Virus record (IMG/VR): IMGVR_UViG_2902229301_000001
Location: 683 to 64,682 of that record
Reading direction: 5' to 3' (one strand)
DNA from: a virus
Length of the DNA: 64,000 nt
The notes below the pieces were generated by a model, which worked only from the letters and a program-made list of their open reading frames with translations, was not told the origin of the DNA and ran no database searches. Position 1 is the first letter of the stretch. Each line of letters starts with the position of its first letter. Shown here in pieces: positions 28,523 through 61,826 of the stretch. The position numbers and the translations under genes were made by a program.

Positions 28523-28714
28523 CTATCCTTGTGAGTTAAAAGATTCCAGTCCCCGCAGAAACACCAGACGGGCCATGCTTGAAAGCGAGCGACTTTCTTG
28601 TGCTGCCAATGCCGCTAACTTGTCGCGCTCATCGTCCGATAAGCGCATTGGGGTAGGGTTTTTGGACGCGATACCACGCGGTAAACGCGATCTCTGTTCA
28701 CTAATAGCTGCCAT
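28523..28714 (-). CDS. Ribbon-helix-helix (CopG-like) DNA-binding protein
   Basis: PMRLSDDERDKLAALA..ESRSLSSMARL. Confidence 0.75.
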   Translation of the reverse strand: MAAISEQRSRLPRGIASKNPTPMRLSDDERDKLAALAAQESRSLSSMARLVFLRGLESFNSQG

Positions 28715-28744: not shown

Positions 28745-28775
28745 GCCGGAATGTTTAGCCACGTCCGGCGCGTGG
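28745..28775 (-). ncRNA. Putative H-type pseudoknot element, copy 1
   Basis: CCACG-C-GCCGGA-CGTGG-CTAAACAT-TCCGGC; copies at 29564-29594 and 61557-61585 with covariation. Confidence 0.65.
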
Positions 28776-28780
28776 TTTTG

Positions 28781-28789
28781 TGATAGGCT
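28781..28789 (+). promoter_or_regulatory. Extended -10 promoter for antisense gene X1
   Basis: TG-A-TAGGCT; equivalents at 29592-29600 and 61591-61599. Confidence 0.55.
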
Positions 28790-28827
28790 TCAAGTGCTAC
28801 CAATCAACCAACCACAAAGGGAAATTT

Positions 28828-29295
28828 ATGGAACTTAATCTAACTTCCTGTCTTCGCACTTATAACCGTATTTCTGCTAATATCGCCAGTGCTTTAAAAA
28901 TTGATAATCCAGACAATACAAAGATTGCTCCATTTATAACTAATCGCTCTCTAATTATTTTTAAGCTTGAGCTTATTCTTTTTTATCACCGTGAAGAATT
29001 CGATAAGGAACGTAAAATTCTTTCTGGTGTAAATGCACTCACTCATTATTTGTTTTACAAAAAAAATGTATCCATTTTAGATGCGAGAAATATTAGGTTG
29101 CATGATGCAATAGTTATCTTATGTGATGAAATCAACCGCTATGTAATTCCAAATAATGTAATTAATTTCATCATCGAACATGGTGATAACTACAGTTCAT
29201 CCGATGAAAATATATCTCAACTTACGGAAAGGTTCTCTTCTTACATAAATAATGAATGGGATGCTAATTTTGCTGATGAACTACTTCGGCAATAA
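28828..29295 (+). CDS. Hypothetical AT-rich protein X1 (possibly ECs1072-family), antisense to early operon
   Basis: ATG at 28828 after AAAGGG RBS; family guess from memory only. Confidence 0.7.
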   Translation: MELNLTSCLRTYNRISANIASALKIDNPDNTKIAPFITNRSLIIFKLELILFYHREEFDKERKILSGVNALTHYLFYKKNVSILDARNIRLHDAIVILCDEINRYVIPNNVINFIIEHGDNYSSSDENISQLTERFSSYINNEWDANFADELLRQ

Positions 29296-29539
29296 ATTCG
29301 TCGAGTTCAGCTAACCTTTTTTCCGATTCATCAGCATTAGCCCGCAGCTTTTCAGGTTTTCCACGGAGAGAACTGCGGGTATCCAGTGTATCAGCGGTTT
29401 CACGCAGGAATTTAATCAACTCACCATCGCTCAACCCTGCGCTGAAAATTTTAGGTCGTTTTTGAGCCTCTACCTCTGCACCTACAGCACATTCCCTGGT
29501 GTTGGACTGTGCGCTCAGATGATGATTTTCTTGTGTCAT
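29264..29539 (-). CDS. Hypothetical protein Y1 (MTQENHH...)
   Basis: GGAG RBS; first 22 codons shared with Y2. Confidence 0.7.
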   Translation of the reverse strand: MTQENHHLSAQSNTRECAVGAEVEAQKRPKIFSAGLSDGELIKFLRETADTLDTRSSLRGKPEKLRANADESEKRLAELDEFIAEVVHQQN

Positions 29540-29563: not shown

Positions 29564-29594
29564 GCCGGAGTTTTTAGCCACGTCCGGCGCGTGG
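29564..29594 (-). ncRNA. Putative H-type pseudoknot element, copy 2
   Basis: CCACG-C-GCCGGA-CGTGG-CTAAAAAC-TCCGGC. Confidence 0.65.
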
Positions 29595-29633
29595 TATCCT
29601 CACTGCTCTCACACAAAGTAAGGATGTTATGAA

Positions 29634-29840
29634 ATGACAAACAAAGAACTACAAATAAAAGAAACTGGTGAAGTGATAAAAGCTGCATTAAATAATGGTT
29701 CTCTCCAGCAATTATCTCAGTTAGTTGCAAATCAGCTTCCGGCTAGAAGTGATGGTTCATTCCCCGCACACAACTCAATTACTTTCGAAGAGTTGTACGC
29801 AACCGTATTCAATGCAGTAGGCAAAGCTATCAAGTCTTAA
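29634..29840 (+). CDS. Hypothetical 68-aa protein X2, antisense to early operon
   Basis: AAGGA RBS; TGGTATCCT extended -10 upstream. Confidence 0.65.
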   Translation: MTNKELQIKETGEVIKAALNNGSLQQLSQLVANQLPARSDGSFPAHNSITFEELYATVFNAVGKAIKS

Positions 29841-30087
29841 CCGCTGATCCAGATAGCACATTGCAAGACTCTGTTTCTGCTGCCACTGCTAGTGTCAGAA
29901 TAATTTTTATATCTCGGCTGAAGACCTTTTTTCCAAGCTCTTCAGCCTTTTTATTAATACTTTCCGTAAGGCTGGCTGCGATACTCAGTCGCTCATTATT
30001 TTCCAATACCCCCAAGTTCTTCTCTGCACCTACAGCACGATCCCCGGTGTTGGACTGTGCGCTCAGATCATGATTTTCTTGTGTCAT
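29830..30087 (-). CDS. Hypothetical protein Y2 (MTQENHD...), first gene of early operon
   Basis: Directly downstream of the early promoter; shares N-terminus with Y1. Confidence 0.65.
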   Translation of the reverse strand: MTQENHDLSAQSNTGDRAVGAEKNLGVLENNERLSIAASLTESINKKAEELGKKVFSRDIKIILTLAVAAETESCNVLSGSAVKT

Positions 30088-30089: not shown

Positions 30090-30155
30090 TGGTATGTTGT
30101 GATCCACTGTTAGCCTGTGAAAATCATTATGAGATCTATTGATCTCTTTTGTCAA
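30090..30155. promoter_or_regulatory. Face-to-face lytic/lysogenic promoters with operator
   Basis: Minus strand TTGACA (30150-55)-N18-CATAAT (30126-31); GAGATC-N4-GATCTC palindrome 30131-30146; plus strand TGGTATGTT 30090-98. Confidence 0.6.
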
Positions 30156-30164
30156 GGTAGAAAA

Positions 30165-30557
30165 GTGACTTTTAGATCTCTTTGTGTCGAGCGACTGAAA
30201 TCCGAACGGAAACGGCTATCCCTGAATCAGGCAGATGTGGCCGAATTGTGCGGAGTGTCGAGGGAAACATGGGGTAAATACGAAAGGGGCTCTATGGTGC
30301 CAGGAGGAGATGTTTTGCTCTCTTTTGCCATGGCGGGAGCAAACATCCAATTTGTTCTGACTGGTGAAGAATCTGGCGGTGTTGCTCTTTCGCGAGATGA
30401 AATTGAACTGGTCAAAAGCTTTAGAGCGGCTCCTTTGGCAGTAAAAGCTGCTGCGCTGGGCGCATTGACGGCGGGTAGCTCTGCAACAGCATCGATAAAC
30501 GTAACGGGTAGCGGCCAGCGTGTAGCGGGCAGGGACTATCACGAAGGTAAGAAGTAG
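30165..30557 (+). CDS. cI: XRE-family immunity repressor
   Basis: ERLKSERKRLSLNQADVAELCGVSRETWGKYERG HTH; GTG start at 30165 preferred. Confidence 0.88.
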   Translation: MTFRSLCVERLKSERKRLSLNQADVAELCGVSRETWGKYERGSMVPGGDVLLSFAMAGANIQFVLTGEESGGVALSRDEIELVKSFRAAPLAVKAAALGALTAGSSATASINVTGSGQRVAGRDYHEGKK

Positions 30558-60771: not shown

Positions 60772-61272
60772 TTAATTCAGATATTCTTCGGGTTTAATTG
60801 CCGTCAGAATGTCGGGGGCAGCATCAAATAAACTCACAAGCTCATTTAATGCGCGTAATATTAGTTTACGCCATTGGCATGATTCATCGTCAATACGCCA
60901 ATAAGGTTGATTAAATTCTTTTTCAGTTAACCCCGCGTGCATAAATAAGGTTTTTCTCTCGCCGACATTTAACCAGCTCAGAAACGTTGACGTATTCACA
61001 CCACGGATGCGACCTTTTGAGAAAGCCCGGCGCAGTTCATCAATGGCGCAGACAATCCGCTCACGCTCTGCGGTTGGCATTTCCTCCAGACGGTAAACGG
61101 TCTGGCTCTTTTTCATCTGCGCATGAAAGCAGAGGGTCAAACGGTCACGCTCATGCAGGCTATTGTAATACGCGCAGATTTCACGCCAGCGGCTATCAGC
61201 AAAGTGCTTGCCGATCACGTTGCGCAGCCCAGCGGGTAAATTCTGCATACTGCTGACGGTAAAGGCTGTCAT
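60772..61272 (-). CDS. B: Replication protein B-like
   Basis: LPAGLR..IG.HF...RW...C..Y.S...RLTLCFHA, IV.AIDELR. Confidence 0.8.
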   Translation of the reverse strand: MTAFTVSSMQNLPAGLRNVIGKHFADSRWREICAYYNSLHERDRLTLCFHAQMKKSQTVYRLEEMPTAERERIVCAIDELRRAFSKGRIRGVNTSTFLSWLNVGERKTLFMHAGLTEKEFNQPYWRIDDESCQWRKLILRALNELVSLFDAAPDILTAIKPEEYLN

Positions 61273-61502
61273 GCTTTCCCCCTCAGTCCAACAATACGGT
61301 GCAATAGCGATATTAGTCGCAACGGCAACGCACGATGTTTTTGTTCAGGCATATAAGGCTTACTGCTCCACGGAGCGAAATAAACCTGGTGAGGTTTTGG
61401 CTGGCAGCGTTGACCATTCGACAGCTCAAACCAGCCTTTACCCTGGTTCATCAGTCCCGGTGCAGGCGACTGACTAATGAGTAAACGAGCAATGGAAATC
61501 AT
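61269..61502 (-). CDS. fil: Fil-like (DUF2724) protein
   Basis: MISIARLL..QSPAP...GW..L.NG.R..P. Confidence 0.7.
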   Translation of the reverse strand: MISIARLLISQSPAPGLMNQGKGWFELSNGQRCQPKPHQVYFAPWSSKPYMPEQKHRALPLRLISLLHRIVGLRGKA

Positions 61503-61556
61503 TGTTTTCCTCCTTCCTATTGGTAACCGCCCACGTATAGGCGGTTGCGAATAGGT

Positions 61557-61585
61557 GCCGGGTTTTAGCCATGCCCGGCGCATGG
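61557..61585 (-). ncRNA. Putative H-type pseudoknot element, copy 3
   Basis: CCATG-C-GCCGGG-CATGG-CTAAAA-CCCGGC; both stems covary relative to copies 1 and 2. Confidence 0.65.
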
Positions 61586-61637
61586 TCTTGTGGTAGGATT
61601 GAATCGCCAAAAACAACCAACCACAAAAGAGGGAATC

Positions 61638-61826
61638 ATGATTGAAAAGGAAATAATCAATCTTCTCGATAAAACGCTTTCAAAAACTCTCGACGTTATT
61701 GAACCGATCAAGTTGTCCGAAAATGACCGTCATGAAGTTGAAAGCCTCTATAAACAATTAGGCAAAGCACTTGACCGTAGTTTAGGAACTAACATCAGCC
61801 CTAAAGGATTTGTGGGGAACATTTAA
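61638..61826 (+). CDS. Hypothetical 62-aa protein X3, antisense to early operon
   Basis: GAGGG RBS; TGGTAGGAT extended -10. Confidence 0.7.
   Translation: MIEKEIINLLDKTLSKTLDVIEPIKLSENDRHEVESLYKQLGKALDRSLGTNISPKGFVGNI

Follow-up and report, generated by a model that had tools for sequence, protein, structure and literature searches.

How a prophage avoids harm from its own defence genes is, to our knowledge, known for very few systems. For phage P22, the sieB/sas principle was reportedly published by Ranade and Poteete in 1993 (Genes Dev 7:1498), and Juhala et al. are said to have described morons, in 2000, as autonomous promoter-gene-terminator units in prophages. The antisense RNA of the P22 system, sas, was sequenced from infected cells as a 127-nt species with its 5' end at approximately the complement of the sieB AUG, two bases beyond it (PMC13397905, Table 2). 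In P2-like phages, morons have been recognised only at the positions A-Q and G-FI, none of them being located in the early operon (PMC3573123). In the P22 record, the sieB promoter is found at 29690-29720, the RNA start at 29727, and the ATG at 29758, and a pseudoknot can be drawn on the opposite strand at 29653-29683, adjoining the promoter. This module, previously known only from the sieB exclusion gene of P22 and lambda, is probably present in two P2-like prophages, in which it is joined to three unrelated small genes. A literature search did not reveal a description of the pseudoknot as a conserved covarying element, of its occurrence, fused to an extended -10 promoter, among P2/186-like phages, or of its use as a cassette common to dozens of unrelated genes.

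The DNA analysed here, referred to as the window, is 64,000 nt long and covers the larger part of a 69.8-kb provirus record from IMG/VR. Two early regions of the P2/186-like type are present in it, and each is transcribed on the minus strand. The host of the provirus is probably a soft-rot enterobacterium since close relatives of one of its proteins, X1, occur in Pectobacterium (87-91% identity) and Dickeya (67%). The 22-nt core TTTAGCCAYGYCCGGCGCRTGG is present three times in the window, at 28754-28775, 29573-29594, and 61564-61585, where 0 occurrences were expected on the basis of 100 shuffles. The three ORFs next to these copies, X1, X2, and X3, are located on the plus strand, are preceded by Shine-Dalgarno (SD) sites, and are embedded between early genes of the minus strand that follow the early promoter (Table 1). 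In the original prediction, the stretches in front of X1 and X3 were regarded as one leader, alike from end to end. Global alignment of 28745-28830 with 61557-61640 did indeed show 67 of 88 positions to be identical (76%, over approximately 86 nt), against a mean of 49% and a maximum of 58% for random pairs of window segments. The motifs that had been named, TGATAGGCT (copy 1), TGGTAGGAT (copy 3), CAACCAACCACAAA, a GGGAA Shine-Dalgarno sequence, and an ATG (28828 and 61638, respectively), were all found. The likeness ends at the ATG, as had been stated: identity over the next 90 nt of the two ORFs is 52%, which equals the background, and X1 (155 aa) and X3 (62 aa) are unrelated, with X1, X2 (68 aa), and X3 falling into separate BLAST clusters. 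In the 60 nt beyond the pseudoknot side, copies 1 and 3 are 55% identical, again at background level. Copy 2 (29564-29636) had been taken for a shortened version of copy 1; its TGGTATCCT does abut the pseudoknot, but the copy belongs to a separate, widespread subtype, called type I here, of which 23 instances occur elsewhere. An origin of the copies by chance or by simple recent duplication was rejected, since copy 3 differs from copy 1 by two compensatory changes and more than 100 instances occur elsewhere.

Table 1. Features of the two early regions (positions in the window; promoter and RNA features as predicted)
Feature	Position	Strand	Description
Arc-like ribbon-helix-helix protein	28523-28714	-	63 aa; early-operon gene downstream of pseudoknot 1
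Pseudoknot copy 1	28745-28775	-	Stem 1 CCACG/CGUGG, loop 1 C, stem 2 GCCGGA/UCCGGC, A-rich loop 3 CUAAACAU; from sequence and covariation, 57 variants
Leader 1, type II	28776-28827	+	TG at 28781-82, TAGGCT at 28784-89, predicted start ~28796, CA-rich 5'UTR, SD AAGGGAA at 28817-23
Cargo X1	28828-29295	+	155 aa; ECs1072-family phage-associated protein (phrog_5286)
Y1	29264-29539	-	91 aa; early gene downstream of pseudoknot 2; 3' end convergent with and overlapping X1
Pseudoknot copy 2	29564-29594	-	Stem 1 CCACG/CGUGG, stem 2 GCCGGA/UCCGGC
Leader 2, type I	29592-29633	+	Extended -10 TGGTATCCT at 29592-29600, overlapping stem 1; predicted start ~29607; SD TAAGGA at 29619-24
Cargo X2	29634-29840	+	68 aa; clusters with 71-77 aa cargo elsewhere, e.g., L044 and L058
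Y2	29830-30087	-	85 aa; first early gene; convergent on X2
Likely early promoter, prophage 1	30126-30155	-	TTGACA-18-CATAAT, 11/12
Fil-like gene (PF10893)	61269-61502	-	Downstream of pseudoknot 3
Long hairpin	61516-61555	-	40 nt; between pseudoknot 3 and fil
Pseudoknot copy 3	61557-61585	-	Stem 1 CCAUG/CAUGG, stem 2 GCCGGG/CCCGGC
Leader 3, type II	61586-61637	+	TG at 61591-92, TAGGAT at 61594-99, predicted start ~61606, SD AGAGGGAA at 61629-35
Cargo X3	61638-61826	+	62 aa; without family match

The early promoter at 30155-30126 is the likely source of a transcript that would hold both antisense elements of prophage 1. The first 22 residues of Y1 and Y2 are common to the two proteins (MTQENH.LSAQSNT..AVGAE), which diverge after that. 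Each of the stacked cassettes of prophage 1 is therefore bounded by a pseudoknot on one side and by a constant Y N-terminus on the other, an arrangement that looks like stacking by recombination. In prophage 2, the hairpin at 61516-61555 has counterparts elsewhere: it is kept together with the knot (CACCTATTCGCAACCG...) in at least 10 other loci, whatever lies upstream, and this pairing is seen in many 186-like loci.

On the minus strand, the core reads ACCAYG-C-GCCGGR-CRUGG-(6-8 nt, A-rich)-YCCGGC-A and contains two interleaved helices. It has the build of an H-type pseudoknot, with a stem 1 of 5 bp, a loop 1 of 1 nt, a stem 2 of 6 bp, and a loop 3 of 6-8 nt consisting for 62% of A. Going from copy 1 to copy 3, a C-G pair in stem 1 is replaced by U-A and an A-U pair in stem 2 by G-C, so that both stems carry compensatory changes. 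Among 57 variants, pair 4 of stem 1 is C-G in 32 and U-A in 25 and is never mixed, even though the search pattern permitted mixing; pair 6 of stem 2 alternates between G-C and A-U, and G-U wobbles occur at pair 1 of stem 2 in four cases. Paired cells amount to 98.7% in these variants as compared to 29-40% when the 3' partners were slid. The covariation score of 0.143, against 0.083±0.007 for shuffles, was reached by 0 of 500 shuffles. As the search pattern prescribed the majority of the stem letters, these figures are carried mainly by two pairs. Independent support is given by variants outside this pattern, which were found in lambda and P22 (stem 2 GCCUG/CAGGC), in the Rac prophage of K-12 (stem 1 CCACC/GGUGG, stem 2 GCCCGG/CCGGGC), and in Fels-2 (stem 1 GCACG/CGUGU); in all of them, both helices are kept with different letters. 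On the minus strand, loop 1 has 1 nt and the A-rich loop 3 has 6-8 nt, which is the classical geometry, whereas the reverse complement needs a sterically implausible loop 3 of 1 nt. The wobble pairs favour the minus strand over the opposite one by 6 to 2. Because of the loop geometry, the wobble pairs, and the location of the P22 RNA on the same strand, the pseudoknot was assigned to the minus strand; judged by its pairing, the core represents an RNA pseudoknot of the H type, encoded by the strand of the early lytic operon.

At the gathering score, Rfam gave 0 matches in the whole window. STnc320, picked up in a local Rfam search with E up to 10, scored 18 bits with a cut-off of 50 (E 0.41) and was rejected as a chance match. 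A riboswitch of the preQ1 or SAM-II kind was dropped as a candidate in view of the absent Rfam similarity, the unrelated downstream genes, and the tie of the element to a counter-oriented promoter. No RefSeq annotation was present beneath the matches in 82 E. coli genomes.

The element is widespread. At least 118 IMG/VR viral loci matched the core pattern in a pattern scan. Among the matches listed, the removal of 7 GC-rich coding false positives left 119 full pseudoknots in 103 distinct sequence contexts, 87 of which have a counter-oriented ORF with an SD site starting 20-100 nt from the knot; the corresponding rate for randomly chosen positions of these loci was 11%. Megablast of both early regions against phage records gave no match, and a sensitive blastn search of these records recovered only the core of approximately 40 nt. 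A pattern scan of genome contigs yielded a true pseudoknot in 3 of 120 loci, including Pseudocitrobacter and Escherichia albertii, the rest being chance matches in high-GC genomes. In the named P2-like phages, the two features go together: P2 and 186 are without pseudoknot and without counter-oriented early gene; both are present in SEN5, vB_YpM_115, vB_YenM_42.18, and Fels-2, the small ORF being unannotated in the last two. The early terminators that are called anti-terminated in lytic development in the 186 record include tR1 (L131 1885-1913). The pseudoknot region of Fels-2 (L255:1470-1590, minus strand) corresponds to approximately 30150-30270 of NC_010463; the unannotated counter-oriented ORF, of approximately 26 aa (MSDSDNFHVLPRPAP...), lies in and overlaps the gap between STM2733 and STM2733.1 and is like the 37-39 aa cargo of loci L006 and L023. 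In the Yersinia phage vB_YenM_42.18 (L006:2129-2521), the annotated start of gpB overlaps the pseudoknot and is probably placed too far upstream. The unannotated 39-aa counter-oriented ORF of this phage (2615-2731) has a good SD and overlaps an annotated minus-strand CDS of 221 aa. Several knots can be present in one early operon, as in L086 (two) and L013 (three). In a 186-like subclass, comprising 5 of the 103 contexts listed (L086:1545-1600, L061, L113, L115, and L116), the knot is located right after the cII stop codon, at a distance of 16 nt, and there is no counter-oriented gene; the pseudoknot can thus exist without cargo.

The genes that accompany the element are diverse. Among the matches listed, 73 distinct counter-oriented ORFs were grouped into 31 BLAST clusters, and the median length of 87 counter-oriented ORFs was 78 aa. 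Identical type I leaders stand before completely different coding sequences, with similarity stopping at the ATG. The unit had been predicted to be portable between phages and joined to unrelated genes, which agrees with the at least 31 cargo families found; the leader is not tied to one gene family, and the subtype of copies 1 and 3 alone carries at least 8 ORFs. The translations of 33 cargo representatives were assigned to 17 different PHROGs, all of unknown function, and to a few unrelated Pfam families, and PADLOC gave one weak hit only for these 33. The cargo includes SieB as well as a homologue of Rip1, the latter being a 190-aa protein encoded behind a type I leader at L045:10646-11215 (+) and in L103 (PDB 9oox_L, E 2e-42). 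Rip1 is a pore-forming anti-phage defence protein reportedly triggered by phage terminase or portal rings (PMC13434031). Such a trigger might come from the induced prophage itself. The translations of X1, X2, and X3 contain no internal methionine, and the translational switch from SieB to Esc in P22 therefore has no counterpart here.

On the cargo strand, the extended -10 motif TGnTAnnnT is present directly beyond the pseudoknot, at a fixed offset, in all P2-type leaders. TG, T-12, A-11, and T-7 are retained in each of the 45 distinct variants of the type I and type II leaders, and positions -10 to -8 vary almost freely. This pattern of base conservation is that expected of an extended -10 sigma-70 promoter and not of an RNA helix. 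In type I leaders, such as that of copy 2, the TG of the putative promoter lies inside stem 1 and the ATG at 32-41 nt from the knot; in type II leaders (copies 1 and 3), the motif is located 9-11 nt further out and the ATG at 48-82 nt from the knot. Lambdoid leaders, designated type III, coincide in position with the mapped P22 promoter and have a -35 sequence TTTCCA, a spacing of 17 nt, and a TAAATT-like -10. Folding predicted the plus-strand 5'UTRs to be unstructured, and placed on the minus-strand RNA single-stranded anti-SD/anti-AUG bases, followed by a hairpin and then the knot. Leader 1 has such a predicted hairpin and a single-stranded anti-SD/anti-AUG segment on its minus strand, and an 8-bp hairpin with one G-U pair would sequester the anti-SD in leader 2. 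The type I leader hairpin is kept by compensatory changes (CUUGG/CCAAG, UCUGG/CCAGA, UCUGU/ACAGA, and CUGAC/GUCAG); in that of copy 2, there is a U-G pair, for which the opposite strand would have a C-A mismatch.

The core adjoins sieB in a P22-like Salmonella phage. In P22, its version of the pseudoknot corresponds to approximately nt 81-110 of the 127-nt sas, and this RNA ends 17 nt past the knot and includes none of ral. When P22, lambda, Rac, and the P22-like phage were aligned over the sas region, they were near-identical up to the pseudoknot, at whose position three different pseudoknot sequences are present; the P22-like locus L007 is near-identical to P22 upstream of the knot and yet has the canonical knot form. 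As three pseudoknot variants occupy one position in homologous sas regions, the window element is, by this comparison, the counterpart of the sas 3' domain and the leader is that of the sieB promoter and 5'UTR. An nhmmer search with the core profile did not reach the P22-type variant (E = 17), so that the link to P22 rests on position, flanking homology, and structure. The knot belongs to the strand of the early operon and directly precedes the putative cargo promoter, the distance to the cargo AUG being 30-110 nt. In P22, no credible promoter was seen ahead of the 5' end of sas, as would be expected if sas were processed from the PL transcript. The Rac variant, upstream of sieB, is located at approximately 3050-3088 of L132 on the minus strand (approximately 1418549-1418587 of NC_000913). 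The annotated small RNA KilS (b4833), which lies approximately 47 nt further downstream on the same strand as the Rac pseudoknot, forms a unit by itself and has a terminator of its own.

Taken together, we consider it rather probable that each copy is a control cassette of the sieB/sas type that acts on both strands. In the lysogen, the extended -10 sigma-70 promoter just past the knot would direct plus-strand synthesis of a short, unstructured, CA-rich 5'UTR and the cargo. Upon induction or infection, the early lytic transcript, in prophage 1 that from 30155-30126, would cross the cassette on the minus strand and would contain, in this order, a segment complementary to the start codon and SD of the cargo, the hairpin, and the compact H-type pseudoknot. 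By analogy with P22 sas, this segment may be released, or may persist, as a stable antisense RNA and would then block translation of the cargo when the lytic programme starts. The pseudoknot would be the 3' structural domain of the antisense RNA and, unlike an intrinsic terminator, could define or protect the 3' end without terminating transcription of the operon. A dual-function unit had been part of the original prediction, and its two halves, an RNA pseudoknot on one strand and a promoter-like extended -10 with a 5'UTR on the other, are borne out by the sequence motifs; the structured strand, described there as an RNA structure, is now read as a probable sas-like antisense regulator of the cargo. 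Possible, and put forward tentatively, is a joint reading in which the knot is a non-terminating 3'-end module and the cassette a self-silencing adaptor. A triple-helix-like knot may halt 3' exonucleases or direct processing, by which a stable RNA could be carved from the middle of an operon without an intrinsic terminator. The adaptor would be used by at least three enterobacterial temperate lineages (P2/186-like, lambda-like, and P22-like) for dozens of potentially self-harmful genes, such as those for SieB and Rip1, which would be turned off upon induction of their own prophage.

The pseudoknot might instead be a cis element of the early operon that stabilises the 5' end, enhances translation or offers a standby site, or directs processing for the next gene (the Arc-like gene, Y1, or fil), its closeness to the counter-oriented promoter being a by-product of sharing the only intergenic space. 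The knots without cargo right after cII in L086, L061, L113, L115, and L116 would be in line with this, and the same-strand gene nearly always begins 9-155 nt downstream of the pseudoknot. This downstream distance is, however, highly variable, the downstream genes are unrelated, and one and the same type of upstream leader is found with many different flanks on the other side. In many 186-like loci, pseudoknot, downstream hairpin, and fil occur as a group, which is just as compatible with a function on behalf of the gene downstream. The stable RNA of P22, on the other hand, spans the upstream antisense part and 17 nt past the knot, without ral (PMC13397905), and the overlap of the type I extended -10 with stem 1 argues for co-evolution with the promoter. 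Action in cis, or a general role in processing or stability, is, all in all, unlikely compared with the sieB/sas reading, yet a serious rival to it.

An element acting on transcription, either as a put-like RNA modifying RNA polymerase or as an anti-Rho element, might let the early transcript survive its untranslated antisense stretch and pass terminators. That stretch would be expected to face Rho, and in the 186 record several early terminators are described as 'anti-terminated during early lytic' development by a factor that is left unnamed. Yet, the knot comes after the untranslated stretch and not before it, 186 itself is without the element, lambdoid carriers already have N antitermination, and the knot does not resemble the put RNAs with their two hairpins, which makes such an activity quite improbable. 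Least credible of all is a site working at the DNA level, be it a protein operator or a recombination or attachment 'landing pad' for the insertion of cargo. The element does form a mosaic boundary at which different cargo genes and different downstream genes are joined, and the stacked cassettes of prophage 1 have a knot at one side and the shared 22-codon Y N-terminus at the other. Its complementary pairs are interleaved, however, an arrangement of which neither double-stranded DNA nor dyad-symmetric binding proteins make use; the compensatory changes and the G-U pairs point to selection for pairing in RNA, and RNA holding the element accumulates in P22 infection. A recombinase was not found associated with the cassette. 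The 'fixed landing pad' of the original prediction was not supported: the cassette behaves as a mosaic joint that recombines with varied cargo and downstream genes, and no insertion mechanism is evident.

Defence genes of the SieB and Rip1 type respond to events of late phage development, which an induced prophage also produces. Should the sieB/sas-type cassette work like P22 sas, a general answer to this problem would be a portable unit that lets the first lytic transcript shut the gene off. In that case, dozens of small genes that lack annotation could be recognised as probably expressed in lysogeny, and a new RNA family, absent from Rfam, would become available for the annotation of enterobacterial prophages. 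The early operon would become a third moron position beside the two recognised in P2-like phages. A pseudoknot as the terminator-free 3' domain of a small RNA would, in addition, be of interest to RNA biology.

The window cassettes share a number of properties with known systems. Like morons, they consist of an extra gene with its own, here predicted, promoter that would be expressed in the prophage and that varies between related phages. They differ from morons in the presence of a dedicated antisense element and in the absence of a terminator of their own: no terminator-like site was found at the ends of X1 or X3, the nearest plus-strand site after X2 is approximately 135 nt downstream, inside Y2, and the 3' ends of X1-X3 overlap convergent early genes. 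With P22 sar, lambda OOP, and C4 of P1/P7, the predicted minus-strand RNA has in common that it is small, structured, and complementary to a translation initiation region, and would control an accessory function in lysogeny or lysis. Both sar and OOP end in hairpins or terminators, and C4 is cut out by RNase P. We know of no report of any of these three with an H-type pseudoknot as 3' domain or as a cassette common to many cargo genes. The leader pseudoknot of T4 gene 32 and other compact H-type knots resemble the window knots in topology: loop 1 is short and crosses the deep groove of stem 2, and loop 3, which is rich in A, runs along stem 1. A further likeness is the location in the leader of a phage mRNA, with a start codon 20-65 nt further on. 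The T4 element has no sequence relation to the window knots and nucleates binding of its own protein, whereas here no autoregulatory protein is evident and the downstream genes are mutually unrelated.

From the sieB/esc/sas system of P22, the predicted cassettes in the window differ in several respects. They reside in P2/186-like instead of lambdoid phages, and two of them are stacked in one operon, unlike in P22. The predicted extended -10 promoter abuts or overlaps the knot, where P22 has a -35/-10 pair at a distance of 44 nt, and the cargo consists of three unrelated small proteins, not SieB, without an internal start of the Esc type. In both cases, however, a counter-oriented gene that is expressed in the prophage (here as predicted) lies inside the early lytic operon, and its promoter (also predicted here) and short 5'UTR are positioned directly beside a pseudoknot on the opposite strand. 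The order on the early strand, with the complement of the cargo AUG and SD first, then a hairpin, and then the pseudoknot, is the same in the two systems, and the spacing of these parts matches.
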